Below are positions 1 through 60,740 of a DNA stretch of 64,000 bases, one piece after another. Both the position numbers and the translations under genes were made by a program. Where the stretch lies: positions 96,001 through 160,000 of the forward strand of contig JBNGBT010000003.1 in NCBI GenBank assembly GCA_049903315.1, written 5' to 3'. The stretch is from Candidatus Cloacimonadota bacterium (lineage in GTDB: Bacteria > Cloacimonadota > Cloacimonadia > JGIOTU-2). Under the pieces are notes generated by a model that was not told where the DNA came from, made no database searches, and was given only the letters and a program-made list of their open reading frames with translations. Positions within the stretch are counted from its first letter, which is position 1. Every line of letters begins with the position of its first letter.

Positions 1-933
1 ATATGCGATTACAAGCCCGTCCGCAGTTGCGCCGTAATGATTGGTCGTTTCAAATCCCTTCACATGAAGGCGCCCAAAGCCACCAGTTGCAATGATAGTA
101 GCTTTGGCTTTAACTGTGTAATAGTTCCTATTTTCGAGATGGTACAGCACTGCACCTGCGACATTTCCCTTATCGTCTTTAATCAGTTCAACTGCTGGCT
201 GATGCTCGAGAATCTTAATTTTATCAGGCCTGTTAAGTATCTCATCACGGATAGTTCTGCAAATCGCTGCGCCAGTGTAGTCCCGGGCAGAATGCATACG
301 GGGACGGCATGTGCCGCCGCCTGGTTTTGTGAGCATTGTTCCTTCTTCAGTCCTGTCAAACATAACACCGAGATCCTGAAGCCAGTGTATCGCATCTGGA
401 GCTTCTGAGACCAATGCTTTGACCAGTGCGGGGACATTATCAAAGTGTCCGCCACCCATCACATCGAGATAATGAAGGATAGGATTGTCATCAGGAAGAA
501 CTGCTGCCTGGATTCCACCCTGAGCCATCATTGAGTTGGAATCCCCGATTCGAAGCTTTGTAACGAGAAGGACATCCGCTCCGTTTTCTGCTGCGAGAAG
601 TGATGCGGAAAAACCAGCAGAACCTGCCCCAATAACGAGGACATCGGTTTCATAGTCAGGATGTTTCAGGTCGAAAAAGTTCGGCTTGATCCTCGAATAA
701 GCCTCGAGTTGATCAACGACTTCGGTCGTAATAGTCTCGCCTTTGTTCGGTCCGATACGCACTTTTTTGCGTGCATCTTTCTTATAGTCAGGATGGAAAT
801 TATCAAGCACTTCCTGCCGTTCTTCCGCAGACATCATCGGGAAGATCGATTTACCTGAACGTGCGAGTTTCAATCGCTCCGGTCGTGTTTTTTCGACTTT
901 TCTGATCGATTTGCGCATATATTCTGGATACAT
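1..933 (-). CDS. FAD-dependent succinate dehydrogenase/fumarate reductase-family flavoprotein subunit (5' part; runs off the left edge)
   Basis: Not in the ORF track. Manual translation from ATG at 933 (AGGAG upstream) gives MYPEYMRKSIRK..., Rossmann motif ETDVLVIGAGSAG, DSNSMMAQGGIQAA, GGGHFDN and IIATGGFGRLH...TTNHYGATADG, typical of the SdhA/FrdA/TfrA/NadB family. Confidence 0.85.
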   Translation of the reverse strand, partial: MYPEYMRKSIRKVEKTRPERLKLARSGKSIFPMMSAEERQEVLDNFHPDYKKDARKKVRIGPNKGETITTEVVDQLEAYSRIKPNFFDLKHPDYETDVLVIGAGSAGFSASLLAAENGADVLLVTKLRIGDSNSMMAQGGIQAAVLPDDNPILHYLDVMGGGHFDNVPALVKALVSEAPDAIHWLQDLGVMFDRTEEGTMLTKPGGGTCRPRMHSARDYTGAAICRTIRDEILNRPDKIKILEHQPAVELIKDDKGNVAGAVLYHLENRNYYTVKAKATIIATGGFGRLHVKGFETTNHYGATADGLVIAY

Positions 934-957
934 ATCTATTCTCCTAAACTTTTAAAT

Positions 958-1644
958 TTATCCTGTTTTAATATCGCGATCATAATATCGCTTTTTTATG
1001 GTTTCTGCATCAGATTTCTCGAGTTTTTGAAGTTCATCTTCATACAGTCCCTCTGCAATTTCTTTAACTCGATTTTCAAGGTCTGGGCTTTTGGGAAGAA
1101 GATACTTTCCTGTAAGACGGCGAGCAAGGATGGCTGCATTATATTGTACGATTTCTGCAGGGCATCTCAGCGCACATAATCCACAGCGGATACAGTCAAA
1201 TGAAAGATCTGCTGCTCTGGCAACATCACCCCGGATAAGTGCCTGCACATAATCCATCACTTCGATATCCTGAGGGCATATCTTCGTACAAGTATTGCAT
1301 CCCACACATCTGAACAGTGTCGGATAAAGTGTTTTGAAAGCATCGATATCAGGATCAACTTTATTAATATCGTAAATGGACTTTTCGGCAGGAACAAACG
1401 GAATCTGAGCGATGTTCATTCCGTCTGTGACAACAGTCTGGCATGCAAGACCTGCCTGCAATTTATAGTCACCCTTTTCTCTATACAAGGTTCCGCATGC
1501 ACCACAAAAACCTTCTCGACAACCGACACCAACCGTCAGCTGAAAGCCTGCATACTCCAATGCACCGATTATGGTTGACCCTTCTGGCACATCAAAACCT
1601 TCCCCTAAAATATATACTTTCACCATGGGAACGTTCTTAGGCAT
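958..1644 (-). CDS. Sdh/Frd-type iron-sulfur subunit (2Fe-2S plus 4Fe-4S dicluster)
   Basis: GCREGFCGAC...LACQT 2Fe-2S motif; CVGCNTCTKICP and CIRCGLCALRCP; directly upstream of the flavoprotein. Confidence 0.85.
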   Translation of the reverse strand: MPKNVPMVKVYILGEGFDVPEGSTIIGALEYAGFQLTVGVGCREGFCGACGTLYREKGDYKLQAGLACQTVVTDGMNIAQIPFVPAEKSIYDINKVDPDIDAFKTLYPTLFRCVGCNTCTKICPQDIEVMDYVQALIRGDVARAADLSFDCIRCGLCALRCPAEIVQYNAAILARRLTGKYLLPKSPDLENRVKEIAEGLYEDELQKLEKSDAETIKKRYYDRDIKTG

Positions 1645-1749
1645 TATGATTCCTCCTGCTATTTATAATAATCGTTGAAACATAAAAACTGCACATTGCA
1701 AAGTCTACATTCATTTATTCAGTCCTTTCGATATCATGACTAATTTTGT

Positions 1750-2166
1750 TCATGTACAATCAATCTTAGGAATTGGACCTAATTTCTTGATTTGTTCAGT
1801 AAATTCTTTCATGCTGTTTGCAAATTTTTTTCCTTCGCTTGCAGATATCCATTCCAGTCGAAGACGATTGGGATTCAACCCGAGTTGTTCCAGTACTTTT
1901 TTCAGCAATATCACTCTTCTTTTCGTTTTATAATTACCACTTTGATAATGACAGTCACCGGGATGACATCCGCCTATGAATACACCGTCGCATCCTTTGC
2001 TGAATGCAAGGAGTACATGCTGCGGATCTACACGTGACGAGCAGAGTGTTTTTATCACCACGCCATTTGGCGGATATTTCATGCGTGATGTGCCGGCAAG
2101 GTCTGCACCGGAATAGGTACACCATTTACATAAGAAACAGACAATTTTTGGTTCAAAATCTTTCAT
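1750..2166 (-). CDS. mvhD: MvhD-type 2Fe-2S adaptor (methyl-viologen-reducing hydrogenase delta subunit family)
   Basis: FLCKWCTYSGADLAGTSR, CSSRVDP, GCHPGDCHY, WISASEG; start refined to MKDFEPKI at 2166. Confidence 0.92.
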   Translation of the reverse strand: MKDFEPKIVCFLCKWCTYSGADLAGTSRMKYPPNGVVIKTLCSSRVDPQHVLLAFSKGCDGVFIGGCHPGDCHYQSGNYKTKRRVILLKKVLEQLGLNPNRLRLEWISASEGKKFANSMKEFTEQIKKLGPIPKIDCT

Positions 2167-2200
2167 GAGATTTCCTACCCCACATGTATATTGGGCGAGC

Positions 2201-4156
2201 TTAAATGCCGCTCGCAATTATCTTGATCATATTATCAATCTGATTATCAGTAAGATTTTTCTGCTGCGCAGCGCCGGAAGGACATGCGCTGATACACGCG
2301 CCGCAACCTTCACAGAGTATTTCGTTCACTTCCACGATTTTGGAAACTTGGTTCAATTTTCGTGCGCCGTACGGGCAGGTTCCCACACAAATCGTACAAC
2401 CGGAGCAAAGGTCTTCATCAACAGATGCTATTATTGGCGAGTGATAGATCTTGTCGCTAGACAACAGAATAAGGGCTTTCGCAGCAGCACCAGAAGCCTG
2501 TGATACAGAATCGGGAATGTCACGAGGTCCCTGCGAAGTCCCTGCAAAATAAAATCCAGCTTGCAGACTTTCTACAGGACGCAATTTCGGATGAGCTTCA
2601 GTTAGGAATCCCTTATCATCAGTGTTGATCTTCAGATTTTTTACGAGATCATGAGAACCCTCGCTTGGCACGATTCCCATTGCAAGAACAACGAGATCGG
2701 CTTTTACTTCGATCTTTTTTCCGCTGAGCGTATCCATACCCATTACGATCATTTTGTCGCCTTCTTTATATATCTTAGCTACTTTACCACGGATATAGAG
2801 GATACCTTCTTCGGACACTGCCTGCTGGACAAATTCCTCATAACGTTTACCTCCTGCCCTGATATCAATGTAAAAGATATAGGGCTGTCCGTTGTGGATC
2901 TTGTGTTTATAAAGTTTCGCATGCTTGAGCGTGTACATGCAGCAAATTTTCGAGCAATAGGAAAGATGATGTTCCGGATCGCGGGAACCGGAGCATTGGA
3001 CAAAGACTATCTCTTTCGGAACTTTGCCGTCAGAGGGTCGATATATTTCACCGCCTGTTGGACCCGTTGCAGAGAGGATTCTCTCGAACTGCAAACTTGT
3101 AATTACATCCGGATATTTTCCATATCCATATTCTGGGATTTTTTCGACAGGATAAAGGTCAAAACCGGTTGCTACAATTACTGCACCTATTTCTTCTTCA
3201 ATAATAGTCTCTTTTGCATCATAATTTATTGCTTCCGCAGTACATTTCTCACGACATTTTCCGCATGCAATAGGTTCTAAGCCGAGGCAATTTTCCACAT
3301 CAAGTGTATAGGTTGCAGGGATTGCTTGCGGGAATGGAATATAAATTGCCTTACGCCATTCGAGTCCTTCCTCTTGCTCGCTTGGAACGAGCACGGGGCA
3401 CACCTCAGTGCAATCGTCACAGAGATTGCATTTAGCAGGATCAACATATAGTGCTTTACGCTTGATCTTTACATTAAAATTACCAATATATCCGTTAATG
3501 CTTTCCACTTCGCTATTTACATAGAGTTTGATATTTTTATGTTTGCTCAATGCCACCATTTTCGGAGTAAGAATGCACTGGGAGCAGTCGAGTGTGGGGA
3601 AGGTTTCAGAAAGCTGTATCATGTGCCCGCCGATTGAAGGCTTCTTTTCGACCATTATTACTTTGAAGCCTGCATCTGCAATATCAAGTGCTGCTTGGAT
3701 ACCGGAAATACCTCCGCCTATAACAAGAGCTTTCTTTGTAACAGGAGCAGAAACAGGATAAAGGGATTCATTCAGTTTAAGTTTTTCAATACCTGTTTTA
3801 ATGATCAATTTTGCTTTATGTGTTCCCTGCTCGATGTCGTTATGGACCCAACTGCATTGCTCGCGGATATTCGCGATCTCCATCTGGTATTCATTAAGAC
3901 CGGATTCCTTCATTACAGTCTGGAACGTGGATTCGTGTAAGGTCGGGGAGCATGCAGCAACGACCACACCGCCCAGTTTGTGTTCTTGGATTGCATTCTT
4001 AATATGATTCTGTCCGGGATCTGAGCACATGAACATATAGTTTTCAATATAGGTAACTCCCGGATAATCAAGCAGTTCTTCGGTGAGTCTTTCGACATCA
4101 ACTGTATCTTTAATGTTTATACCGCAATGGCAAATAAAAACGCCGATTCTTTTCAT
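2201..4156 (-). CDS. hdrA: Heterodisulfide reductase subunit A (FAD, Fe-S)
   Basis: RIGVFICHCG, VAACSP, ANIREQCSW, VIGGGISG, TFPTLDCSQC, inserted ferredoxin, QFER, YCSKICCMYTLK, C-terminal ferredoxin. Confidence 0.95.
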   Translation of the reverse strand: MKRIGVFICHCGINIKDTVDVERLTEELLDYPGVTYIENYMFMCSDPGQNHIKNAIQEHKLGGVVVAACSPTLHESTFQTVMKESGLNEYQMEIANIREQCSWVHNDIEQGTHKAKLIIKTGIEKLKLNESLYPVSAPVTKKALVIGGGISGIQAALDIADAGFKVIMVEKKPSIGGHMIQLSETFPTLDCSQCILTPKMVALSKHKNIKLYVNSEVESINGYIGNFNVKIKRKALYVDPAKCNLCDDCTEVCPVLVPSEQEEGLEWRKAIYIPFPQAIPATYTLDVENCLGLEPIACGKCREKCTAEAINYDAKETIIEEEIGAVIVATGFDLYPVEKIPEYGYGKYPDVITSLQFERILSATGPTGGEIYRPSDGKVPKEIVFVQCSGSRDPEHHLSYCSKICCMYTLKHAKLYKHKIHNGQPYIFYIDIRAGGKRYEEFVQQAVSEEGILYIRGKVAKIYKEGDKMIVMGMDTLSGKKIEVKADLVVLAMGIVPSEGSHDLVKNLKINTDDKGFLTEAHPKLRPVESLQAGFYFAGTSQGPRDIPDSVSQASGAAAKALILLSSDKIYHSPIIASVDEDLCSGCTICVGTCPYGARKLNQVSKIVEVNEILCEGCGACISACPSGAAQQKNLTDNQIDNMIKIIASGI

Positions 4157-4165
4157 TATAATCCT

Positions 4166-5044
4166 TTACATTAAACCTTTTTCTTTAAGCAGGGGCTCGG
4201 GATTGACATAATGTAGTTTCTTCCAGTCCTTATTCCATTTCTGCCCAAGTGCAATTGCCATGAGTTCTGTAAAATAGAAAACAGGCATGGGTGTAAATTC
4301 CAAAAATTCTTTAGATGTTTCTTTCTGTCGCTGATCGAGGTTGAATGCACATAGCGGACAGCTTGTGATAAGTGCTTCACAACCAGCATCGCGTGCGGAG
4401 TTTATGATCTCATAAGTCCTTTTTACCGTCACATCTGTTTCGATAATGGTTTGATATGCTCCGCAGCATTCCAGCCGGTAAGGAAATACAACACCCTCGC
4501 CGCCAAGTGTATTCACAAGCTCTTCCATAATAGTGGGATCTTCATAATCATCTATTGCAAGTTCTTTCGGGCGTACAAGAAGGCATCCGTAATATGCGCC
4601 GATCTTCATATCTTTAAGGGGTTTTGTAATCTTTTCCTTGATTCCCTCAAAAGTAATTCTATTCTTGAGAATGCTCAGAAGATGCACAACATCTGTCGTC
4701 CCCTTGAATTTTGAATCTTCTTTGTACATGAAGTCATTGACTTTACGCAGATTTTCTTCATCATTAAGAATGAATTCCTTTGCCCTTTTCAGTGTATTAT
4801 AGCACATACTGCACAAAGTTACAAGTTCATCATATCCCTGATTCTCAGCGCGGAGAAGATTTCTGATCGAAGAAAGCTGAAGCATGAGGTCATCTGTCGT
4901 CATTGAGAATACAGTGCCGCAACAGATCCAATTTTCCATCTCTTCTAACGGTTGTCCGAGCACTTCCATGACTTGCATAGCGGATTCTTCAAAATGCTTG
5001 GCATTTGTCTTCAGAGTGCAACCCGGGAAATATCCAAGTTTCAT
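4166..5044 (-). CDS. hdrB: Heterodisulfide reductase subunit B (two CCG domains)
   Basis: YFPGC, WICCG, CSMC, YYGC, ECCG, SCPLC. Confidence 0.93.
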   Translation of the reverse strand: MKLGYFPGCTLKTNAKHFEESAMQVMEVLGQPLEEMENWICCGTVFSMTTDDLMLQLSSIRNLLRAENQGYDELVTLCSMCYNTLKRAKEFILNDEENLRKVNDFMYKEDSKFKGTTDVVHLLSILKNRITFEGIKEKITKPLKDMKIGAYYGCLLVRPKELAIDDYEDPTIMEELVNTLGGEGVVFPYRLECCGAYQTIIETDVTVKRTYEIINSARDAGCEALITSCPLCAFNLDQRQKETSKEFLEFTPMPVFYFTELMAIALGQKWNKDWKKLHYVNPEPLLKEKGLM

Positions 5045-5110
5045 ACGTTTGTTCCTTTAATAATTTTCATACAAACTAATATAATTATTTTTAATATTCA
5101 TCATCAACTT

Positions 5111-5518
5111 CTAACCTGTAAGTTTGCGAAATGCGCTGACCAATGCAATTTGCGGAAGGTCTTTCAGCTCTTTTGATGAAAGGTCTTCGGGTTTAAGTGT
5201 ACCCCCCCGCTGGCGAAGATTGATAGTGCGAAGCGCTTCCATAACTTGTGCAACCTCTATGCCTTTTGGACAGCGTGTCGAGCACTGCAGGCATGTCGAG
5301 CATATCCAGATAGTTTTTGAGTTAAGTAATTCATCGACGCAGCCGAGTTGAGCAAGACGAATAACCTGGTTGGGAGGTAAGTCCATGTAATCAGTAACAG
5401 GGCAGCCGGACGAACAAATTCCGCATTGATAACAATCAAATACATTCTGTCCGGAGATTTCTTCAATTTTATCAACAAGAGAATTCTTTATATTTTCGCG
5501 GGTGATCTTTAAACTCAT
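5111..5518 (-). CDS. hdrC: Heterodisulfide reductase subunit C (4Fe-4S dicluster)
   Basis: CYQCGICSSGCP and WICSTCLQCSTRCP; adjacent to hdrB. Confidence 0.92.
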   Translation of the reverse strand: MSLKITRENIKNSLVDKIEEISGQNVFDCYQCGICSSGCPVTDYMDLPPNQVIRLAQLGCVDELLNSKTIWICSTCLQCSTRCPKGIEVAQVMEALRTINLRQRGGTLKPEDLSSKELKDLPQIALVSAFRKLTG

Positions 5519-6057
5519 TATTGTTCCTCATTATAATCATAACCTGCCTGAAATGCTTTCATGTTCAGGTCTTTGAATTTACTGGGTACAGAATCAGAGA
5601 TAGCTTCCTTCATTGCATCAGGAGATACTATCTTTGCCTGTTTTGTTGCGAATCCCAGCATAACTATGTTTGCCACGATCTTTTTACCAAGTTCTTCAGC
5701 AAGACGGGTTGCAGGAATTCCTTTTGCAATAAAATCTTTATGTGACTGTATCTTCTCCACAAGATCAGTATCATACAAAAGGATACCGCCATTTTTCAGG
5801 ATCGGAAGAAAGGTATCATATCCTTCCTGGGACATTGCAAGGAGAACATCGGCACTATCAACAAGCGGGTATTCAACATTTTGGGATGAAATGACAACCT
5901 GCGAGCTACAAGCGCCACCACGAGCTTCCGGTCCGTATGCCTGGGTCATGGAAGAGTGTTTCTGATCATATATTGAAGCTGCTTTTCCAACAATGAAGGC
6001 TGAGAGGATAATGCCCTGTCCGCCAAATCCTGATATTTTAACTCTGAGTTCGCTCAT
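5518..6057 (-). CDS. korC: 2-oxoacid:ferredoxin oxidoreductase gamma subunit
   Basis: SGFGGQG, QAYGPEARGG, ANIVMLG. 2-oxoglutarate specificity is inferred from the sucCD/fum context. Confidence 0.88.
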   Translation of the reverse strand: MSELRVKISGFGGQGIILSAFIVGKAASIYDQKHSSMTQAYGPEARGGACSSQVVISSQNVEYPLVDSADVLLAMSQEGYDTFLPILKNGGILLYDTDLVEKIQSHKDFIAKGIPATRLAEELGKKIVANIVMLGFATKQAKIVSPDAMKEAISDSVPSKFKDLNMKAFQAGYDYNEEQ

Positions 6058-6074
6058 GTATTGCTCCTGACAAA

Positions 6075-7007
6075 TTAAAAATCTCTACTTGCTGTATATT
6101 TTCGATCTTTTCTATGTGTAATTTTTCTGGAATTGCTTTGCATCTCTTCCCAGTTTGAAAACTTTGCTAACCGGGTTTTAATACCAGCCTGGACATTTTC
6201 CCAGAAAGTGGGTCTGTCTTCATTTACAAATTCACCACACACGATCTCATTATCCATGCTGAGAGGTATTTGTGTTGGGTCAGCTTCATGGTTTATAATA
6301 GCTCGTGTCTGGAATTCTTTAAGCAGATCCAGCCCTGTTCCACCCTTATTTTTACGCGCAAAAACCGTTGCACAGGGAGAGACTATCTCTATAAAGCAGA
6401 AACCTTTTTTGTTGGCAGCCCTCGCAATTGAATCTGTCAAACGACGGGCATGCATTGTGGTCCAGCGAGCTACATAACTTGCGCCTGCAGCAGCTGCAAG
6501 CCCAACCAGATTAAAGGGCATCTCATAGTTGCCGTATGGAGCGGTCGAACTATAAGCGCCAAGTGGAGTAGTAGGGGCGTTTTGCCCACCGGTCATGCCA
6601 TATATGAAATTGTTCACACAGATCACATTAATATCTACATTTCTTCTTGCTGCATGGATGAGATGGTTTCCACCGATTGCAAAGAGGTCACCGTCCCCAG
6701 AAAATACAAATACTGTAAGATCGCGATTTGCGAGTTTCAGCCCTGTCGCAAAAGGTATTGCTCGACCGTGAGTCGTATGATAAGAATCAAGCCGAAGATA
6801 GCCGGCAACTCGACCGGTACAGCCGATGCCCGACACTATTGCTGTTTTATCATAAGACACGCCTGCTTTTTTCAAACCTTCTATAAAGGTTGTCACTGCT
6901 GAGCCAAGCCCACACCCGGAGCACCAGATATGAGGCATTCTATCCATTCTCAGGAGATCTTCCATTGGATGGGATATTTCTTGTATTTGAGCTGTATTAT
7001 TTGCCAT
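6075..7007 (-). CDS. korB: 2-oxoacid:ferredoxin oxidoreductase beta subunit (TPP-binding)
   Basis: WCSGCG, SGIGC, HTTHGRA, GDGD...NN, YGMTGGQ; start refined to MANNTAQ at 7007. Confidence 0.9.
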   Translation of the reverse strand: MANNTAQIQEISHPMEDLLRMDRMPHIWCSGCGLGSAVTTFIEGLKKAGVSYDKTAIVSGIGCTGRVAGYLRLDSYHTTHGRAIPFATGLKLANRDLTVFVFSGDGDLFAIGGNHLIHAARRNVDINVICVNNFIYGMTGGQNAPTTPLGAYSSTAPYGNYEMPFNLVGLAAAAGASYVARWTTMHARRLTDSIARAANKKGFCFIEIVSPCATVFARKNKGGTGLDLLKEFQTRAIINHEADPTQIPLSMDNEIVCGEFVNEDRPTFWENVQAGIKTRLAKFSNWEEMQSNSRKITHRKDRKYTASRDF

Positions 7008-8154
7008 GTGCGACCTCTTCAATTGCGTGCAGCACGTCTTCAAATTTATGTATGCCGCCACCGGGATGTGGAACAAGTTTGACGTGTGAATTGTCATGTG
7101 AGCATCGTTCTACTTCGAGTGATATTTGCCCGAGATTCATTTCGGGAACGATAAAACCAGCCACTTTTCCTGAAAGTTTGCGTATTTTTTCTTCGGGGAA
7201 AGGCCATACTGTTTTTAAGCGTAAATATCCAACTTTAATTCCCTTTTTCTTTGCCATAGTTATCGCAGGGAGAACAGTGCGGGATGTAATTCCATAGGAA
7301 ATCACGATCACATCTGCACCTTTGATATCATATTCTTCAGTTAGAGAAATATCATTTATATTATTTTTGATTTTATTCACAAGCCTGGGCACGAGTTCTT
7401 CCTGGCATTCAACGGACATGTCTGGATAACCACGTCTGTCATGAGTGAGTCCTGTTGTATGATAGCGATATCCGTCACCAGCTTTTGCAAAATCAGGGAT
7501 TAGATTTTTACCATAATCATATGCGAGATAATCTGCTGGTTTTTTATTTGTATATTTCCTATTAATAATCTCAAGTTCTTCAATTGGGGGAATGATAACT
7601 TTCTCTGTCATGTGTCCTACGAGTGCGTCTGCCATAAGGAAAACTGGTAGTCTGTACTTTTCAGAAAAATTGAAAGCAGTTACTGTGAGATCAAAGAATT
7701 CCTGGGGTGAGTTCGGTACAAGAGAGATACTTCCGTAGTCACCATGTGAACCCCATCGAGCCTGCATCATATCTGATTGTCCCCAGGTGGTTGGAAGTCC
7801 TGTGGAAGGCGAACCTCTTTGTACATTGACCACTACGCATGGAGCTTCCATCATCATACCAAGACCGATGTTCTCGTTCATGAGCGAGATGCCCGGTCCA
7901 GATGTTGCGGTCATGGATTTCATGCCAGCCCACGAAGCGCCGAGTATTCCTGCCATTGATGCAATTTCGTCTTCATACTGTATAAATACTCCCTGAAGAA
8001 GCGGGAGTCTCATTGCCATACGTTCTGCAATTTCTGATGCGGGAGTTATAGGATAGCCCCCAAAGAAACGGCACCCGGCAGCAAGTGCACCTTCAGCACA
8101 GGCGATATCGCCCTGCATGAAAAATTCACCATGTAATCGTGATTCTTGGAACAC
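6997..8154 (-). CDS. korA: 2-oxoacid:ferredoxin oxidoreductase alpha subunit
   Basis: GYPITPASE, EDEIAS, TATSGPG, QRGSPSTGLPT; GTG start. Confidence 0.9.
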   Translation of the reverse strand: MFQESRLHGEFFMQGDIACAEGALAAGCRFFGGYPITPASEIAERMAMRLPLLQGVFIQYEDEIASMAGILGASWAGMKSMTATSGPGISLMNENIGLGMMMEAPCVVVNVQRGSPSTGLPTTWGQSDMMQARWGSHGDYGSISLVPNSPQEFFDLTVTAFNFSEKYRLPVFLMADALVGHMTEKVIIPPIEELEIINRKYTNKKPADYLAYDYGKNLIPDFAKAGDGYRYHTTGLTHDRRGYPDMSVECQEELVPRLVNKIKNNINDISLTEEYDIKGADVIVISYGITSRTVLPAITMAKKKGIKVGYLRLKTVWPFPEEKIRKLSGKVAGFIVPEMNLGQISLEVERCSHDNSHVKLVPHPGGGIHKFEDVLHAIEEVAHGK

Positions 8155-8414
8155 TATTCCTCCTTCTCAGTAACAAATATTGCAAAATCAGGACAGATCA
8201 TTTCACATAAGCCACAAAAAGTACACTTGTCCGGTTTTGCGACAACAGGAGGATGATATCCCTTTTTGTTAAAATCCTTGGAGAGTTCAAGTACATCTCT
8301 GGGACAGTACTCGATACAGAAGGAGCATCCTTTACATCGATCGGTGATGATATGGATTTCTCCGCATATTGTTTTGGGTTTTTCTTTCCCAAATGGCTTT
8401 TCCCAATATCTCAT
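8154..8414 (-). CDS. korD: 2-oxoacid:ferredoxin oxidoreductase delta subunit (2x4Fe-4S ferredoxin-like)
   Basis: CKGCSFCIEYCP and CTFCGLCEMICPDFAI. Confidence 0.88.
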   Translation of the reverse strand: MRYWEKPFGKEKPKTICGEIHIITDRCKGCSFCIEYCPRDVLELSKDFNKKGYHPPVVAKPDKCTFCGLCEMICPDFAIFVTEKEE

Positions 8415-8429
8415 TCAAAACTCCTTGGA

Positions 8430-8615
8430 GTTGATAATCGGAATTTGAAATTCTTCAATAGGCCGTAAAAATTTATATTTTCTTGAAACAAATACATTTA
8501 TTGAATCCTTTTTCAAGATTTTCAACCTGCTGTTCTTCGATAAATTATAATTTCTAATTTCAAAAATTTCTTTCGTATTTTATCTAGTTTCAAATTTCGA
8601 GTTTCAAGTTTCAAT
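8430..8615. repeat. Decayed element bounded by inverted arrays of ~7-bp repeats (GAAAYTY)
   Basis: Minus strand reads GAAACTT-GAAACTC-GAAATTT-GAAACTA at the fumarase-beta stop, and a complementary AATTTCAAATTCCGATTATC before korD. Confidence 0.55.
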
Positions 8616-9164
8616 TTTATATTTCTCGACACCTTCCTGATAGATGTCATTTCCATAAATATCATTTGCGACAATGCACGGAAAATCCTCGACTTTGAGT
8701 TCGCGAATTGCTTCAGTTCCGAGATCATCGTAAGCAATCACTTTTGCAGCAGTAATGGATTTGGCAACGACCACTGCAGCTCCGCCGATCGCAGCGAGAT
8801 ACACTGCCTTGTTCTTTTTCATGGAATCGATAACTGCCTGACTGCGAGGACCTTTGCCGATCATGCCTTTGAGTCCGACATCCATAAGTGCAGGTGCATA
8901 GGGGTCCATTCTATAGCTTGTGGTAGGACCTGCAGAACCGATCGGTTTTCCGGGAGGAGCCGGAGCAGGACCAACGTAATATATTATTTGCCCTTTTATA
9001 TCAAAGGGAAGTTCTTTTCCTGCTTCAACAAGATCGACCAACCGCTTGTGTGCTGCATCCCGCCCTGTGTAGATCGTTCCGGAAATAAGCACTTTGTCGC
9101 CGATAGAAAGTTTGGAAACATCTTCATCTGTCAAAGGAGTCTGCAATTTTACTGTCTGTGCCAT
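8604..9164 (-). CDS. Class I Fe-S fumarate hydratase, beta subunit
   Basis: GRDAAHKR, GPTTSYRMD, GMIGKG, DLGTEAI. Confidence 0.92.
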   Translation of the reverse strand: MAQTVKLQTPLTDEDVSKLSIGDKVLISGTIYTGRDAAHKRLVDLVEAGKELPFDIKGQIIYYVGPAPAPPGKPIGSAGPTTSYRMDPYAPALMDVGLKGMIGKGPRSQAVIDSMKKNKAVYLAAIGGAAVVVAKSITAAKVIAYDDLGTEAIRELKVEDFPCIVANDIYGNDIYQEGVEKYKIET

Positions 9165-9176
9165 GTGATTTCCTCC

Positions 9177-10022
9177 TTAAATGACTGCTGTTTTATGCCG
9201 TGCTGCATGACATTGAATGTTCACTGCTACAGGCATTGAAGCAATGTGACAAGGTTTGTACATGATGGACACAGCGAGAGCAGTTGTTCTGCCACCGAAT
9301 CCCTGGGGACCGATCCCGAGCTTGTTCACTTTTTCCAGAATTTCCGCTTCTACTTTTGCCCATTTTTTTTCAGGATGAGATTCATTGAGGGGGCGGAGCA
9401 GTGATTTTTTGGCAAGAAGTGCACTCTGCTCAAAGTTCCCGCCAAGACCGACACCTACAACTATTGGAGGACAAGGATTTCCACCGGAACGTCTTACGCG
9501 GTCAACGACAAAATTCACCACGCCCTCGATGCCGTCCGCAGCTTTCATCATTTTCACTTCGCTCATGTTCTCGGAACCACCGCCTTTAGGTGCAACGGTG
9601 ATCTTTATTTTCTCGCCGGGCACAATATCAGTATAAATGAGTCCGGGAGTGTTATCTTTTGTGTTCACACGACCGATGATAGGGTCATCAACAAGAGACT
9701 TACGTAAATAGCCATCTTTATAACCCTGACGGATGCCTTCATGGATCGCTTCATAAAAATCTCCACCCACGAGATGAACATCCTGTCCGAGCTCGACAAA
9801 AACAACTGCCACACCGGTATCCTGGCAGGATGGCATTTTTTCTTTGGCTGCCAGTTCATAATTTTCCAGAAGGATAGCAAGCACTTCCTTTGCTGTTGGA
9901 GACTCTTCTTTTTCGTAAAATTCCTTGATCTTATCTAGCACATCTTCACCAATGTAATAGTTGGCATCGATACACAGTTTTTTGACAACAGGAATAATTT
10001 CTTTTACATCGATTTCTCTCAC
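9177..10022 (-). CDS. Class I Fe-S fumarate hydratase, alpha subunit
   Basis: CQDTG, KGGGSEN, NPCPP, GIGPQGFGG, CHIAS, QCHAARH. Confidence 0.92.
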   Translation of the reverse strand: MREIDVKEIIPVVKKLCIDANYYIGEDVLDKIKEFYEKEESPTAKEVLAILLENYELAAKEKMPSCQDTGVAVVFVELGQDVHLVGGDFYEAIHEGIRQGYKDGYLRKSLVDDPIIGRVNTKDNTPGLIYTDIVPGEKIKITVAPKGGGSENMSEVKMMKAADGIEGVVNFVVDRVRRSGGNPCPPIVVGVGLGGNFEQSALLAKKSLLRPLNESHPEKKWAKVEAEILEKVNKLGIGPQGFGGRTTALAVSIMYKPCHIASMPVAVNIQCHAARHKTAVI

Positions 10023-10031
10023 GAAAACTCC

Positions 10032-10901
10032 TTATGATAAAACTTCTATGGTTGCTTGTCCGATATCAGCAGGTGATTTGCAAACACGTACACTGGCCTG
10101 TTCAAGGGCGGTCATCTTTTCCTGAGCAGTACCCTTGCTGCCTGCAATGATAGCGCCTGCATGTCCCATCCGCTTTCCTTTGGGCGCGGTCTGCCCAGCG
10201 ATGAAAGCAACAACGGGTTTTTTCATATGATTTTTTATATAATGAGCTGCCTGGATTTCAAGGTCGCCACCGATCTCGCCTATGATAACCACCGCATGAG
10301 TTTCGGGATCGTCTTCAAAACGTTTCAGCAGATCGATAAATGTCGAGCCTATGATCGGGTCACCGCCGATACCGATGGCAGTAGTAACACCCAATCCTGC
10401 TTTCACAACCTGATTTGCAGCTTCGTAGGTTAGGGTGCCGGATTTCGATATGACACCGACATGCCCTTTTTTGAAAATACTTCCCGGCATAATGCCGATC
10501 TTTGCTTCACCTGCCGTGATGATGCCCGGACAGTTCGGTCCGATGAGTACTGAGCCCTTTTTTGTGACGTACATTTTTGCATACATAACATCAAGTGTGG
10601 GAATGCCTTCGGAAATACACACGATAACTTTAATGCCTGCATCGGCAGCTTCCATGATTGCATCTGCAGCAAAAGATGGCGGAACGAGAATGAGTGAGGT
10701 GTCAGCTCCGGTATGATCAACCGCATCTTTGACTGTGCTGAACACAGGTCTGCCAAGATGGATCTGACCTCCTTTACCGGGGGTTACACCACCAACTATA
10801 TTCGTGCCGTATTCAATACACTGCTCTGCATGAAAGGTAGCTTCTTTGCCCGTAAAACCCTGCACTATAACTTTCGAATTTTTATTTACTAATATTCCCA
10901 T
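10032..10901 (-). CDS. sucD: Succinyl-CoA synthetase alpha subunit
   Basis: [33 protein letters not shown]. Confidence 0.96.
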
Positions 10902-10903
10902 GA

Positions 10904-12073
10904 TCACACTCCCTTTGCCGCTTCAACTGCTTTTTGAGCTCCATCAGCGAGACTGCTGGCAGAAATAATATTTGGAATGTGTGCTTTTTGGAGAATTTCC
11001 TGCGCGATTTCAGCATTCGTTCCATCCAGCCGGACAATGACAGGAACAGAAACATTAGTCTCTTTTGCAGCATCGAGTATGCCGTTTGCAATCCTGTCAC
11101 AGCGAACGATCCCGCCGAAAATGTTCACAAAGATCGCTTTTACATTTTTATCTCTGAGAATGATTTCGAAGCCCTTTGCTACAGTTTCTGCCGAAGCATC
11201 TCCGCCGACATCGAGGAAATTTGCTGGTTCGCCGCCTTTGATTTTAATAATATCCATCGTGGACATCGCAAGCCCAGCGCCGTTTACCATGCATCCTACA
11301 TTGCCGTCGAGTTTGATGTAATTCAGGTTGAAATTACTCGCTTCCAGTTCAGTTGGTTCTTCTTCGGAAAGATCACGCATCTCAAGAATATCCGGATGTC
11401 TGAACAGGGCGTTATCATCAAAATTTATTTTTGCATCGAGTGCAATAAAGGTGTCATCATCTTTCAGTACAAGGGGATTAATTTCGATAAGACTCGCGTC
11501 TTTTTCTTTATAGAGTTTATACAAAGCACGGGCAAATTGTGCAAAATTACGGGATTGCAATTTATCCAACCCAAGCCCGTTCGCAAGCATCACACCATGA
11601 AAATTCCTAAAGCCGATCAGGGGATCGATGCGTACTTTAATTATCTTTTCCGGAGATTCCGCAGCGACTTTTTCGATTTCCATTCCGCCTTCGGTCGATA
11701 CGATCATCACAGGCATTTCTGATCCGCGGTCAAGCACCAGCCCAAGATAATATTCTTTCTTGATTGGTGCAACTTCTTCGATATAGATTTTCTGAACGAG
11801 TTTGCCTTTGGGACCTGTCTGGTGAGTGACCAATTTCATGCCCAGCATATTCTCTGCAATGGTTTTTACATCTTCAATCGAGGATGCGATTTTAACTCCG
11901 CCGCCCTTTCCTCTGCCGCCTGCATGCACTTGTGCTTTAACTACCCATTTTTTGCTGTCGATCTCTCGGGCTGCTTCTATTGCTTGCTCAGGAGTCTCGG
12001 CCATCGTGCCGTGTGGGATTGTCACACCATAATGTTTGAAAAGCTGTTTCGCTTGATATTCATGAATATTCAT
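10904..12073 (-). CDS. sucC: Succinyl-CoA synthetase beta subunit
   Basis: [41 protein letters not shown]. Confidence 0.96.
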
Positions 12074-12267: not shown

Positions 12268-12299
12268 AAAAAAAGAGACGCACTCTCGTACGTCTCTTT
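12268..12299 (-). terminator. Rho-independent terminator of the carboxypeptidase gene
   Basis: AAAGAGACG...CGTCTCTTT stem with an A run on the left, i.e. a U tract on the minus strand. Confidence 0.7.
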
Positions 12300-27467: not shown

Positions 27468-28922
27468 ATGAAAAAAGTCGAATTCACTTTGAATAATCTA
27501 GATGAAGTCTTCCCCGACGACTTCACTGAAGAACAGAAAGCTCGGGCGAAAACAATTTTTCTAAAAAAACTCGCTGAATTATCCCACCGTTTTTATAATG
27601 GTAAAATACAGACTGTGCCGAAAGCCGCAGTTTTTGGTTTCAACTGGTTCAATGTGTGGTACACCCCAGGCGTGTCTAAAATATCAACAGCTATTCGTGA
27701 TGATAATGACACTTCTTTTGAGCTTTCAAACAGAGGTAATCTCGTTGCAGTGGTGAGTGATTCAACACGTGTGCTGGGAGATGGTGACTGTACTCCTCCG
27801 GGAGGGCTCGGAGTTATGGAAGGAAAAGCATTTCTGATGAAATATCTCGGCGGTGTTGATGCTGTGGCACTTTGCGTGGATAGTTATAATGACAAAGGTG
27901 AGCACGATCCAGACAAGATCATCGAATTTGTCAAGATGTGCCAGCCCAGCTTTGGAGCGATCAATCTGGAAGATATTTCTCAGCCGAATTGTTACAAAGT
28001 GCTTGATACACTTCGTGAAGAATGCTACATTCCTGTATGGCATGATGATGCCCAGGGTACTGCCTGCGTAACGCTCGCGGGTCTTATCAATGCACTGAAA
28101 CTTGCGGGCAAGAAGATCGGAGATGTCCGAATTACTATGCTCGGCGCAGGTGCTTCCAATACAACGATCGCCCGAATAATCATTGCTGCCGGCGGCGACC
28201 CGAAGAAGATGATTATGTTCGATTCCAAGGGCGGACTGCACACAAACAGAGAAGATATCAAAGCCGATAAACGGTTCTACCGCAAATGGGAACTCTGTGA
28301 AAAAACTAATCCCGGCAAGATAAATGATATTGCGGAAGCCTGCAAGGGCGCTGATGTGCTTATTGCTCTTTCCAAACCGGGTCCCGACACAGTAAAGCCC
28401 GAGTGGATCAGGTCGATGGCTGAGAAATCAATCGTCTTTACCTGCGCGAATCCAGTGCCGGAAATATACCCCTACGCTGCGAAAGAAGCAGGAGCATTCA
28501 TCGTCGCAACAGGGCGTGGTGATTTTCCGAACCAGGTGAATAATTCAATCGGATTCCCCGGTATTTTAAAGGGTGCGCTCATGGTTCGTGCACGAAAGGT
28601 GACAGATGAGATGGCGATCGCTGCAGCATATTCTCTTGCAAACTATGCGGAGAAACGCGGCATTGATCCAGAAAATATTGTTCCTACAATGGATGAAGCG
28701 AATGTCTTTCCGGAAGAAGCCGCCGATGTCGCAATGCAGGCTATTAAAGATGGTGTTGCCAGAGTAACAATGACCCGGGAAGAAGCCTTCAATATAGCAA
28801 AAAGAGATATTGAACATGCCCGAAAACTCACAGCTTCACTTACTGAGAATGGTTTTATCAAATCCCCTGACCAGGACATGCTTCAGGATGCGCTCAAATG
28901 GGCTATTGGGCAGGTTCAGTAA
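27468..28922 (+). CDS. NAD(P)-dependent malic enzyme
   Basis: YTPGVS, VMEGKA, INLEDI, HDDAQGTA, GAGAS, ANPVPEI, ATGRGDFPNQVNN. Confidence 0.93.
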   Translation: MKKVEFTLNNLDEVFPDDFTEEQKARAKTIFLKKLAELSHRFYNGKIQTVPKAAVFGFNWFNVWYTPGVSKISTAIRDDNDTSFELSNRGNLVAVVSDSTRVLGDGDCTPPGGLGVMEGKAFLMKYLGGVDAVALCVDSYNDKGEHDPDKIIEFVKMCQPSFGAINLEDISQPNCYKVLDTLREECYIPVWHDDAQGTACVTLAGLINALKLAGKKIGDVRITMLGAGASNTTIARIIIAAGGDPKKMIMFDSKGGLHTNREDIKADKRFYRKWELCEKTNPGKINDIAEACKGADVLIALSKPGPDTVKPEWIRSMAEKSIVFTCANPVPEIYPYAAKEAGAFIVATGRGDFPNQVNNSIGFPGILKGALMVRARKVTDEMAIAAAYSLANYAEKRGIDPENIVPTMDEANVFPEEAADVAMQAIKDGVARVTMTREEAFNIAKRDIEHARKLTASLTENGFIKSPDQDMLQDALKWAIGQVQ

Positions 28923-31397: not shown

Positions 31398-31796
31398 ATG
31401 ATAACAAAAATAAATCATATAGGAATTGCTGCTCGAAATCTTGATGAAGCGATAGAAACGTATAAAAATCTTGGATTTTCCATCATAAACAGAGAAATTG
31501 TTTCATCTCAGAAAGTGGAAGTGGCAATGATACAAATTGGAAAAAACTACATTGAGCTTCTCCAACCTACTGCGGAAGACAGCCCTATTGCAAAATTCCT
31601 TGAGCACAATGGACCCGGTATCCATCATCTCGCAGTGAGAGTCGATGATATTGAGAAAACATTACTCGAGTATGAGAAAAAGGGAATTCTAATGATCGAT
31701 ACGGTTCCACGCGAGGGTGCACACGGCACCAAAATTGCCTTTGTTCATCCAAAATCTACCAATGGAGTTTTACTCGAACTTTGTATGAAAGCTTAA
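31398..31796 (+). CDS. mce: Methylmalonyl-CoA epimerase
   Basis: INHIGIA, IELLQP...SPIAKFL..GPGIHHLA, PREGAHG.KIAFVHPKSTNGVLLEL. Confidence 0.92.
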   Translation: MITKINHIGIAARNLDEAIETYKNLGFSIINREIVSSQKVEVAMIQIGKNYIELLQPTAEDSPIAKFLEHNGPGIHHLAVRVDDIEKTLLEYEKKGILMIDTVPREGAHGTKIAFVHPKSTNGVLLELCMKA

Positions 31797-56010: not shown

Positions 56011-56412
56011 TTATCTAAGCATTTTTTTCCATTTTGAATATATCTTCCTTGATAAGTTTATTGTGTGACATGATAAACCCAATGTTGTAATAAATATTGC
56101 AAAATACATTAGTTTTACAGCATTATAGTTTTTATAGGATTTTAGACCAATTGATATAAGACTATCTATAGCTTCTATTAAAATTTTTATAAAATCTGGT
56201 AAAAGTATGAGAGTTAAAATGGAGGTAGCTAACGCTAAAGGTAAAGCACGAGTATGATACACCGTCGATGCGGTCTTGATTGATTTTTTTCTGTCCTCTA
56301 AATGCTCTTCAGGTATTAAATCTATCGTTTTTTTGATTTCATTATACCAAGAACTATATAAAAGACCAATAACCGCTAAAAATAAACTTGAAGCAGATAA
56401 TAGATCATTCAT
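56011..56412 (-). CDS. Hypothetical membrane protein (~3 TM)
   Basis: Three hydrophobic segments; 1 bp from the upstream stop. Confidence 0.7.
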   Translation of the reverse strand: MNDLLSASSLFLAVIGLLYSSWYNEIKKTIDLIPEEHLEDRKKSIKTASTVYHTRALPLALATSILTLILLPDFIKILIEAIDSLISIGLKSYKNYNAVKLMYFAIFITTLGLSCHTINLSRKIYSKWKKMLR

Positions 56413-56413
56413 T

Positions 56414-56998
56414 TCATCCTTTCAATTTAGATTTCACTCCAAACTCCTTACATAATTCATTATATGATGACGGCTTAAATGTGTAGACGGATACGCTGCC
56501 TTGTTTTTTTCGAACAGGTGGAAGGCTTGAATTAATCTGAATAAGTCTTTTGTTGAACTCATCGACAAGATTTACATTATGAATACCTACTGATAATTCA
56601 TTCTTCTCATTATTAATTTTAACTGATTCAATCAACAACTTTAAAGTATTATTTATTTCGTCTTGTAATAAATACTGATACTTGGACATAACTGCACGAA
56701 TAAGAGATCTGCTATTAGTAGATGTCATTTGAAATAAACGACAAACTCTTTGTTCGTCTGGAATTAGTCCAGAACAAACATTTTTAACAAGTAAATAAAG
56801 TCTATATTCAAGAATGTCGGAACCTCGACTAAAGACTTTTTGACCTAAAAACATTGTAACAAATTCAGTTAAGGCAGTTTTAGAATATTGTTTTAATCTG
56901 TTCTCTAATTCAGATTCTTGACAACCAATTATTTTTGATAACTCTATAATGTCTACTCCATTTAGATTAAGTTTAGTTTCGATTGTTAATTCAGGCAT
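56414..56998 (-). CDS. Hypothetical protein (possible HTH-like core)
   Basis: GGAGGAG RBS; the segment IPDEQRVCRLFQMTSTNSRSLIR is HTH-like. Confidence 0.7.
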   Translation of the reverse strand: MPELTIETKLNLNGVDIIELSKIIGCQESELENRLKQYSKTALTEFVTMFLGQKVFSRGSDILEYRLYLLVKNVCSGLIPDEQRVCRLFQMTSTNSRSLIRAVMSKYQYLLQDEINNTLKLLIESVKINNEKNELSVGIHNVNLVDEFNKRLIQINSSLPPVRKKQGSVSVYTFKPSSYNELCKEFGVKSKLKG

Positions 56999-57009
56999 AT
57001 CTCCTCCAA

Positions 57010-57906
57010 TTATTTATTTTCTCTTTTTATTAAACCCTTAAAACTTAATAGAACAAATTGCGATAAAGTTAATGCTAAGTTCCTTAATAGTCTTGCTTGA
57101 TCACTTTTAGCCATATAAGGATGACCACCTGTATGACTAAGCAGACCATATAACTTTGCTATTGCTTCTTTTTCTTTGGTTTCAATTATTTTTTTTGCTT
57201 CAAGATAATCTCTTACTTTTTGCGGTTTTTCGAACAGAGTATTGGGTATTATTCCTTTTTCATTCTCATATATTACTTTTACAGTTTCTCTTAATACTGA
57301 TTCAAAAAATTTCCTCGAATTGGATATTGAATCATCCCACTTTTGATCAATAAAGTGTTGTTCAGATAAATCTAAATGATGAAAAGCAGTTTTTTGATTA
57401 CCTAGATTTAATTCTTCATATAAATTTTTTAATACTCCCTTAGCTTCTTTTATATCAATGGCATCAGATTCGGGTTTTTGTAATTTGCCATTCTGGAATA
57501 TATAACCATCCAATTCCAATGTTCTTTTCAAGCTATTAATTTGTTTATTATAAATAGTTTTTTCGGTTGAATTAAAAGTCGATATCTCTACTAAAGCATC
57601 TTCAGCAAGTTTTTCTAAATATTTAATGCCCAATAATTGTTTTTCTGATTCAGGATAATTTGGATACGCATCAGATATAGTCTCACCTGTGTGCAATCTC
57701 ATTACCCATTCTTGTATTGCCCTTTCACCATATAAATCTTTAATAGAGTTAAGAAACCACTCTTCGTAATCTGCCTTGTACAAAAAATCATAAAAATTCC
57801 CCTTATCAATTACTATTCTGTCATAATAAAAGCCGGTCGTATCTTTAGTGGTATATTTTTTCTCATAAAATTCAGCAATAGCAATGGCAGTTATTCTTGA
57901 TATCAT
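57010..57906 (-). CDS. Hypothetical protein with Abi_C/HEPN-like C-terminal domain
   Basis: C-terminal helical region: SISNSRKFFESVL ... LSHTGGH ... QARL..NLA..LSQF. Confidence 0.55.
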   Translation of the reverse strand: MISRITAIAIAEFYEKKYTTKDTTGFYYDRIVIDKGNFYDFLYKADYEEWFLNSIKDLYGERAIQEWVMRLHTGETISDAYPNYPESEKQLLGIKYLEKLAEDALVEISTFNSTEKTIYNKQINSLKRTLELDGYIFQNGKLQKPESDAIDIKEAKGVLKNLYEELNLGNQKTAFHHLDLSEQHFIDQKWDDSISNSRKFFESVLRETVKVIYENEKGIIPNTLFEKPQKVRDYLEAKKIIETKEKEAIAKLYGLLSHTGGHPYMAKSDQARLLRNLALTLSQFVLLSFKGLIKRENK

Positions 57907-57961
57907 TTTAACTCCACGTTTTATTTTAACACATTCTATTAATTATGATATGTCACTAGAT

Positions 57962-58468
57962 TTATGATTCATTAAATAGTACACTTGGAACCTCTTCACA
58001 GAAAATTGGAAATAAAACATTAATAATTGTTTCAGCAGATAATGAACGAAGCTGAGGACTGAATCCCATTTCACCATAGTCAAGCCCCAACATAAATTTG
58101 CAAATTATAACAAATCTTTCTTGTAATTTCATCAACTCCCAACATATTTCTTCATTTGATGTGATTTCATCCAATATCATATTTGGAGTAATATATTTAT
58201 ATCTAATATTCAAACGTAATCTAGAAAATATTAAGGTAATCCAAAAATCATCATCTGATGTTTTAAACTTTTTTGAGATATCTTGCATCGTGTCGTACAT
58301 TGCAATGAGGAAACCTATATGATGGGATAATATTTTGATTATTATTCTTTTACTCATATCTTCAATTCCAAGTGTTTCACAAATTATTTTATCTTTATAA
58401 TATTTTGATGCAATTTTTCTTGGCAAAAAAACTGTACGCTTTAGATTGTTAAATAAACCTTTCATCAT
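57962..58468 (-). CDS. Hypothetical protein
   Basis: 168-aa ORF with an AGGA RBS and a leader homologous to that of the 59888-60565 gene. Confidence 0.55.
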   Translation of the reverse strand: MMKGLFNNLKRTVFLPRKIASKYYKDKIICETLGIEDMSKRIIIKILSHHIGFLIAMYDTMQDISKKFKTSDDDFWITLIFSRLRLNIRYKYITPNMILDEITSNEEICWELMKLQERFVIICKFMLGLDYGEMGFSPQLRSLSAETIINVLFPIFCEEVPSVLFNES

Positions 58469-58779
58469 TCAGTCCTGTTTAAAAAATAAATCACTAATTG
58501 TTGCCGAAAAATTTATTTGAAATATTTCCATTTCTTTTTCACCTCAGTTTTTCCAATCATGGCATGTGTACGTTATGTAGAAAATTATATCACATGCGTC
58601 AAGAATTTTTATTGGTCATATTCTATGACATATATCCTATTCATAATAAGTGCTCTTCTTTTTTTAGTTTTTCATGAAAATATGTTTAGAAACAAAATCA
58701 TCCAGATTACGTAATGCTGTTCGATCAGAGATATTGCTAAGCCTTTGATATCTTGAGTTACATCAAATTTCCTAAAATA

Positions 58780-60565: not shown

Positions 60566-60740
60566 TGTATCCTCCATTTTTTATCGCTATTGTACAATAA
60601 ATTTGAATGATAAAACATTTTTCATCTTAATTATTCCAATCATTGCATATAGAGAGTTTTTATAAAATCATATCACATACGTCAAGAATTTTTTTAGCAA
60701 AGAGAAACTTGAAATTTGAAATTCGAAATTGGAAATAAGT

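Follow-up and report, generated by a model that had tools for sequence, protein, structure and literature searches.

At the left end of the window, by which we mean the whole analysed stretch of 64,000 nucleotides (contig positions C33:96001-160000, base 1 being C33:96001) from the genome of a Candidatus Cloacimonadota bacterium (2.96 Mb, 96.4% complete), lies a cluster of genes for succinyl-CoA ligase, fumarase, a 2-oxoacid:ferredoxin oxidoreductase (Kor), HdrABC, MvhD, an iron-sulfur subunit (FeS) and a fumarate-reductase-like flavoprotein. The full unit reads sucCD-fumAB-korDABC-hdrCBA-mvhD-FeS-flavoprotein-mvhGA, with mvhG and mvhA outside the window, to its left. We put at roughly 0.6 the probability that MvhAGD, HdrABC and the FeS/flavoprotein pair form one H2:fumarate/ferredoxin oxidoreductase, in which H2-driven, bifurcating fumarate reduction takes place through a direct wire from HdrBC to FeS.

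The overall reaction would be 2 H2 + fumarate + oxidised ferredoxin -> succinate + reduced ferredoxin. By analogy with the methanogen complex, the electrons of H2 would travel from MvhA through MvhG and MvhD to the flavin of HdrA, where the pair would be split. The high-potential electron is predicted to continue through HdrC and HdrB to FeS, and from there to the non-covalently bound flavin adenine dinucleotide (FAD) of the flavoprotein and to fumarate, the CCG clusters of HdrB acting as a wire and not as the reductant of a free disulfide. The gene context suggests that the low-potential electron would go to ferredoxin or KorD, which in turn could support succinyl-CoA carboxylation by KorABCD or feed Rnf or the membrane hydrogenase.

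The predicted contact and the reductase pair

The complex of HdrB, HdrC and FeS was predicted with all three chains together, HdrC being included lest FeS merely occupy the HdrC site. The score was 0.85 (three runs), compared with 0.01 for the best of three controls, with at least 94% contact agreement and a partner pLDDT (model confidence) of at least 78. Of 157 solved complexes, 116 come up to the score mark, as do 2 of 215 mismatched pairs; these counts apply only roughly to a three-chain job. In the model, FeS residues 111-117, including the cluster ligands C113 and C116, contact HdrB residues 38-43 and 54-61, a region that holds C41, a ligand of the N-terminal (distal) CCG cluster. This cluster is placed at the distal end of the chain because Cys234 ligates the proximal one (bioRxiv 10.64898/2026.08.25.746951; this and the other papers given by identifier are cited from partial texts). 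FeS also contacts the C-terminal helix of HdrC (110-134), which lies beyond residue 104, where the alignment with methanogen HdrC stops. Among the carrier genomes, the HdrC tail after the last cluster is 49-53 aa long in 21/21 linked-type proteins and 74-111 aa in 16/16 paralogues, and its uniform shortness may be the product of a single origin. A motif in the tail is present in both held-out linked proteins and in none of the 16 paralogues (its presence in the other 19/19 holds by construction, the motif being derived from the linked set). The model suggests that FeS docks on the N-terminal cluster of HdrB and on a family-specific tail of HdrC.

All six MvhAGD-HdrABC subunits are encoded, with best matches to Hdr, Mvh and Vhu models at scores under the methanogen-specific cut-offs. 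MvhA has Ni-binding motifs at residues 60 and 453 and a C-terminal extension (cleavable tail), and HypD is encoded elsewhere in the genome. HdrA has, as the initial annotation of this DNA stated, QFER (from residue 356) and CCMYTLK (from 405) with the Glu and Lys at the bifurcating FAD; E358 and K411 align with E356 and K409 of Methanothermococcus HdrA (5ODC), a pair described as a marker of bifurcating HdrA (PMC12054007). HdrB contains two complete five-Cys CCG motifs. At the position of His154, a proposed proton donor (bioRxiv 10.64898/2026.08.25.746951), it has Leu155, and the histidine occurs in 0/37 linked HdrB proteins, being replaced in all 37.

The flavoprotein model (pLDDT 84.5) has E. 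coli FrdA as its top fold match (TM-score 0.68). The protein carries an N-terminal extension of ca 93 aa and lacks the Succ_DH_flav_C domain, and its residues H326, T342, E343, R367, H440 and R474, whose catalytic roles were assigned from alignments plus general knowledge, are invariant in 53 aligned sequences. The family is large, with at least 7878 of 8000 scored candidates at E <= 1e-150 (the query being a 59%-identical relative). FeS has 12 Cys that are invariant in 51 sequences, and resembles HdrC-type ferredoxin domains in weak matches. Its 14 longer homologues, among which a weak search found no fusion to CCG, are mostly FlxA-FeS proteins, with a few containing flavoprotein or HdrA pieces. 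These fusions were treated as likely assembly or frameshift artefacts, since the junctions vary, the upstream C-terminus is often cut (nine were read) and their clusters mostly have 1-5 members, and they were left unused as evidence of linkage.

Synteny was surveyed in the best 80 of 580 related loci, many of them cut by contig ends, with Flx labels resting on NCBIfam likeness for two subunits and on position for the third. The closest loci are from Cloacimonadota. Within the 80, FeS is present in 75, some hdr gene in 59, kor in 38, flxA with flxB in 35 and mvhG/A in 15, while flxA never accompanies mvhG/A; the neighbour of FeS is often mvhD or flxA. Among 151 Cloacimonadota genomes, in which kin are not independent, the flavoprotein was found in 39, HdrB in 40, both in 37 and neither in 109. 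Synteny, co-occurrence and complex prediction thus speak for two proposals made from the sequence alone: that a soluble, Hdr-linked fumarate-reductase-like pair is encoded here, with the parts of TfrB split between FeS and HdrB, and that fumarate reduction would pull ferredoxin reduction. For this forward direction the computed reaction free energy is about -70 to -79 kJ/mol, obtained with fumarate at +33 mV and with H2 and ferredoxin potentials taken from general knowledge.

Gene order and features of the cluster

Fourteen open reading frames (ORFs) of the cluster lie in the window, all on the minus strand, from sucC to the flavoprotein gene, which runs off the left end. Families, order and tight spacing are as the initial annotation had them, including the overlap of the korC stop with the hdrC start, which consists of the single base 5518. 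The widest gaps between ORFs are 189 nt (fumB-korD), 105 nt (mvhD-FeS) and 66 nt (hdrC-hdrB). Beyond the flavoprotein, a GxxExxY gene, mvhG, mvhA and a hydrogenase maturation protease gene follow on the same strand with gaps of 21, 48, 6 and 2 nt. The features are listed below in window coordinates, or in contig coordinates where these are marked C33.

10904-12073, minus: sucC, succinate-CoA ligase beta, 389 aa, first gene of the cluster (NF001913, 583.9 bits, cut-off 370)
10032-10907, minus: sucD, succinate-CoA ligase alpha (NF004230, 438.7 bits, cut-off 336)
9177-10022, minus: fumA, Fe-S fumarate hydratase alpha (NF004885, 413 bits, cut-off 276)
8604-9164, minus: fumB, Fe-S fumarate hydratase beta (NF005310, 286 bits, cut-off 238)
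8154-8414, minus: korD, ferredoxin-like delta subunit of 2-oxoacid:ferredoxin oxidoreductase (best match OGOR_delta, 76.8 bits, under the cut-off of 125)
6997-8154, minus: korA, alpha subunit (NF006412, 553 bits, cut-off 411); 2-oxoglutarate specificity suggested by context
6075-7097, minus: korB, beta subunit binding thiamine pyrophosphate (TPP_enzyme_C; best match NF007207, under cut-off); the start context places the true start probably 30-44 codons inside the ORF
5518-6057, minus: korC, gamma subunit (Pfam POR); stop overlaps the hdrC start
5111-5518, minus: hdrC, short form, 135 aa, two [4Fe-4S] motifs (TIGR03290, 71.9 bits, under cut-off)
4166-5044, minus: hdrB, two CCG domains with all ten Cys, Leu at the His154 position (domain match)
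2201-4156, minus: hdrA, 651 aa, E358/K411 (5ODC_A, E 8e-206)
1750-2217, minus: mvhD, [2Fe-2S] adaptor, likely start Met18 (Pfam FlpD, E 3.6e-54)
958-1644, minus: FeS subunit, 228 aa, one [2Fe-2S] and two full [4Fe-4S] motifs, no CCG domain (domain search)
1-933, minus: 5' part of the fumarate-reductase-like flavoprotein gene, cut by the left window edge (whole gene C33:95266-96933, 555 aa)
C33:94855-95244, minus: GxxExxY gene (TIGR04256)
C33:93793-94806, minus: mvhG, 337 aa (VhuG, E 5e-52, under cut-off)
C33:92323-93786, minus: mvhA, 487 aa, both Ni-binding motifs (VhuA, E 1.4e-125, under cut-off)
C33:91859-92320, minus: hydrogenase maturation protease gene (TIGR00072, 106 bits, cut-off 47.45)
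12272-12299, minus: 12-pair terminator-like hairpin with T-run, 3' of the upstream gene, which it likely sets apart from sucC

The initial annotation had reported that no MvhAG hydrogenase occurs in the visible part. This is literally true of the window, but it is an effect of the window edge. An mvhAG pair immediately downstream had been named beforehand as a finding that would speak against the proposal, and the DNA left of the window holds mvhG, mvhA and the protease gene. The mid-potential partner, which had been left without a name, now has a candidate in the MvhAG hydrogenase encoded next door. The observation that a membrane anchor is missing stands, with no Sdh_cyt found in the 96.4%-complete genome; the hydropathy of the cluster proteins never exceeds 1.73 in 19-residue windows. 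No flxABC genes lie beside mvhD in this cluster.

The Kor subunits are securely those of a four-subunit 2-oxoacid:ferredoxin oxidoreductase, while the 2-oxoglutarate name is inferred from gene context. Scans for promoters and terminators gave results near chance level (14 terminator-like sites over the whole region, 10.6 +/- 3.6 being expected by chance). Two RNA runs contained 0.06 of the sequence words, and among the 16 of 31 RNA contig pieces listed, which are short and from relatives, none bridges the flavoprotein gene and mvhG. GxxExxY genes sit at varying positions of the cluster in several Cloacimonadota-type loci (L001:16855-17244; L002-L005, L018, L020).

Alternative readings

We now turn our attention to other ways in which these genes could work. 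In a thiol shuttle, HdrB would reduce a disulfide and the thiols would be re-oxidised for fumarate, either by the same HdrB working both ways or at an unrecognised thiol site. The option was proposed by Rubin-Blum et al. (Text S1 Note 3, PMC6315080) and is implied by the name thiol:fumarate reductase; it agrees with both CCG motifs of HdrB being complete and with TfrA being the best NCBIfam match of the flavoprotein. However, a methanogen-style shuttle needs two CCG sites, one reducing and one oxidising. FeS lacks a CCG domain, and the source genome yielded no CCG gene other than hdrB. One such gene was also found in 22 of the 38 other carriers (one a single-contig genome), with more than one in 13, none in 2 and an ambiguous result in 1; because HdrB is the only CCG protein in the source genome and in those 22, no second thiol-oxidising site is available there. 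Neither DsrC nor ComA was found in the genome, ComA being one marker only of coenzyme M (CoM) synthesis, and the predicted docking takes place at the terminal cluster of HdrB. A shuttle appears unlikely. The initial annotation had also offered the reverse direction, a confurcation in which Kor-reduced ferredoxin and succinate would yield fumarate and H2, so that glutamate or propionate could be oxidised past succinate without a membrane. The reactions of Kor, succinyl-CoA ligase and fumarase can run both ways, the genome encodes methylmalonyl-CoA mutase (C69:32687-34228), its epimerase (window 31398-31796, plus strand) and malic enzyme, and 33 of the 39 carriers gave no match to ATP citrate lyase. 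This proposal fares badly, however, with both the protein and the energies. The His that attaches FAD covalently (M. smegmatis Sdh1 motif) aligns with Asn133, which corresponds to the Asn of Shewanella flavocytochrome c3, and since Asn occupies this position in 53/53 sequences, and non-covalent homologues reduce fumarate and do not oxidise succinate (PMC9557727), succinate oxidation is argued against. Under 17 of 18 computed conditions the reverse reaction is endergonic, by +1 to +45 kJ/mol, and it reaches -2.7 kJ/mol in the remaining one (ferredoxin -520 mV, 1e-5 atm H2, fumarate/succinate 0.01). We consider it improbable.

Another option is that co-regulated, separate enzymes are encoded, with Mvh-Hdr reducing a disulfide together with ferredoxin for Kor, and with the FeS/flavoprotein pair fed by free ferredoxin or by MvhD, HdrA or FlxA. 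The reductase pair is indeed unlinked from hdr in the genome G053, the locus L011 and others, and mvhD or flxA often adjoins FeS. Given that 37 of the 39 genomes with the flavoprotein also have HdrB, and given the short linked-type HdrC tail and the docking prediction, we attach little weight to this scenario. Finally, the flavoprotein could be a reductase of another substrate (e.g. a substituted fumarate) or an L-aspartate oxidase. All Sdh, Frd, Tfr and NadB models shown score it under their cut-offs, and it has Gly205 (Gly in 52/53) where Sdh1 has a pocket Phe, so fumarate is assigned as substrate from context. That context consists of the fumarase and succinyl-CoA ligase genes of the source cluster, one or both of which are found in 11 of the best 80 loci. 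As regards L-aspartate oxidase, no Glu is found in 53/53 sequences, in either register, at the position of NadB E121, which we take to be a substrate residue. The chance of such an activity seems very slight.

It is important to point out that several observations weigh against a bifurcating, H2-driven fumarate reductase wired directly to HdrBC, beginning with the different substrate pocket implied by Gly205. HdrB retains all ten Cys, the catalytic bridging ones included, and with these it may yet act on a disulfide. His154 is absent also from 10 of 17 unlinked HdrB paralogues, and its loss is for this reason weak evidence. The docking score is a model confidence, and FeS may pass through its likeness to HdrC-type ferredoxin domains. 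The conservation of the interface exceeds the background modestly for HdrB (0.78 vs 0.70) and FeS (0.81 vs 0.72), and for HdrC it is under the background (0.57 vs 0.62). In the single-contig genome G053, the reductase pair is more than 1 Mb from the hdr-mvh-kor block, and adjoins a malic enzyme gene. According to a 2024 study, the corresponding cluster of the Riftia symbiont is co-expressed like an operon, and tfrAB departs from it (PMC11636981). In the literature searched, where subscription papers were covered as reference listings, we found no biochemistry on any member of the cluster.

Relation to known systems, distribution and meaning

The cluster is already described at the gene level, in Ca. 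Celaenobacter, and the general bifurcation idea is also published (PMC8542988, PMC6315080). Williams et al. (2021) reported that the TFR and OGOR genes of Ca. Celaenobacter cluster with those for fumarate hydratase, succinyl-CoA synthetase, Mvh (group 3c) and Hdr, and interpreted this as an H2-driven reductive tricarboxylic acid (TCA) cycle (PMC8542988). The gene set is the same as here, and the match extends to a separate cluster of ATP citrate lyase, aconitase and isocitrate dehydrogenase and to a Mrp-linked membrane hydrogenase; the source FeS protein shares a 90% cluster with proteins of Ca. Celaenobacter antarcticus and Ca. Celaenobacter polaris. That paper names the pair TFR and gives a generic CoM-S-S-CoB reaction for Mvh-Hdr, whereas here FeS has no CCG domain, no ComA was found and the prediction puts HdrBC and FeS in direct contact. 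Rubin-Blum et al. (2019) described a flxABCD-hdrABC-korABCD-tfrAB cluster in tubeworm symbionts and Thioflavicoccus, and considered, besides the thiol shuttle, a complex bifurcating directly to OGOR and the reductase (PMC6315080). The input there is NADH through Flx, in contrast to H2 through MvhAG here, the proteins being compared by description; close homologues occur in sulfur-oxidising proteobacteria, e.g. Thiodictyon. A 2025 survey found MvhADG-HdrABC in 11/19 clade B genomes (PMC12590816).

The source proteins resemble the methanogen MvhAGD-HdrABC complex (5ODC) in all six subunit types, in the equivalents of HdrA K409/E356 and in the ten HdrB cysteines. They differ from it in a HdrC that is ca 50 aa shorter with an unrelated tail, in changes at HdrB His154 and in the loops after both CC motifs, and in a terminal acceptor that is predicted to be fumarate. 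Methanogen TfrAB is, as generally known, a soluble, anchor-free Frd-type flavoprotein with an Fe-S subunit, and in these properties the present pair is alike. However, the flavoprotein scores 327 bits with the TfrA model (cut-off 718), covering profile positions 6-427 of 546, and FeS, which has no CCG domain, scores 40 bits with the TfrB model (cut-off 385). Since these scores are far under the cut-offs and the CCG domain is absent, the pair is, as judged by sequence, not TfrAB. With complex II (Sdh/Frd), the flavoprotein has the dicarboxylate catalytic residues and the fold in common, but not the covalent-FAD His or the membrane anchor. In mycobacterial EtfD, HdrBC-like CCG clusters serve as a non-catalytic wire; that protein is membrane-bound and has altered cluster ligands, whereas the source HdrB keeps all ten Cys (PMC13083937).

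We have also considered a broader claim, to which we give somewhat better than even odds. The cluster would represent a widespread bifurcating enzyme of the Hdr family without a disulfide substrate, in which the distal CCG cluster of HdrB and the remodelled HdrC tail dock an anchor-free fumarate reductase, and in which the input can be swapped between H2 (MvhAG) and NADH (Flx). An MvhA-like protein was found in 29 of the 38 other carriers, and a FlxA-like one in 6 of the remaining 9. At six loci without an input gene (L030, L054, L058, L074, L077, L078), an MvhA with 66-71% identity is encoded elsewhere in the genome; for four further loci of this kind, which have a fused HdrA (L010, L012, L013, L014), no close MvhA was found in any. 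The locus L086 (G088:C175:2658-13833) is compact, with the order hdrA(~800 aa)-hdrC-hdrB-FeS-flavoprotein-sucCD-fumAB-malic enzyme, and in its genome (97% complete) neither MvhA nor FlxA was found with the queries used. In 4 of the best 80 loci (L008, L009, L016, L020), a gene for a GlcD-like FAD protein lies 3' of the reductase, and three of these carry extra genes of the Fe-S and mvhD-like kinds; the arrangement may be an input module for hydroxy acids.

Elsewhere in the source genome, aconitase, ATP citrate lyase subunits and a monomeric isocitrate dehydrogenase are encoded in one operon (C33:171843-179235; L082:9843-17235), ca 64 kb from the cluster, and with these enzymes a reductive TCA cycle would be open to the organism. 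Through methylmalonyl-CoA mutase and epimerase, succinyl-CoA may also be exchanged with propionyl-CoA in either direction. The malic enzyme gene (window 27468-28922, plus strand), 15 kb off the cluster, matches the same families as the gene inside the cluster of the relatives L010, L015, L018 and L086. A malate dehydrogenase of the NAD type was not found in the genome, and an Ldh_2-family protein and the malic enzyme are candidate substitutes. An operon for a Mrp-linked membrane [NiFe] hydrogenase (contig C1; L083:6107-16247) starts with sulfhydrogenase beta/gamma-like (NAD(P)-binding) genes and adjoins a Na+-pumping pyrophosphatase gene. Apart from these pathways, the window has a stretch of low GC content (0.29) at 56011-60577 (minus strand). 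It holds a radical SAM/SPASM gene besides four ORFs that match neither Pfam nor NCBIfam at the thresholds used, and may be an acquired island.

What the present analysis adds to the published descriptions is a defined interface as a target for mutation, a prediction of the direction and the scarcity of ATP citrate lyase among the carriers, a subunit of which was found in only 6 of 39, the source genome included. Since most carriers have no detected ATP citrate lyase, the cluster does not mark its carriers as autotrophs, and in most of them a reductive branch from malate is more likely than a reductive TCA cycle. Many bacteria encode HdrABC without CoM and coenzyme B or DsrC. If the predicted wire is true, it would be a new reaction for flavin-based bifurcation, and the ferredoxin and fumarate-reductase bottlenecks of the reductive TCA route would both be lifted in one soluble step. 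If the disulfide-free reading holds, energy would be kept as reduced ferredoxin with neither membrane nor quinone, and the acceptor would be named for one large class of bacterial Hdr complexes.

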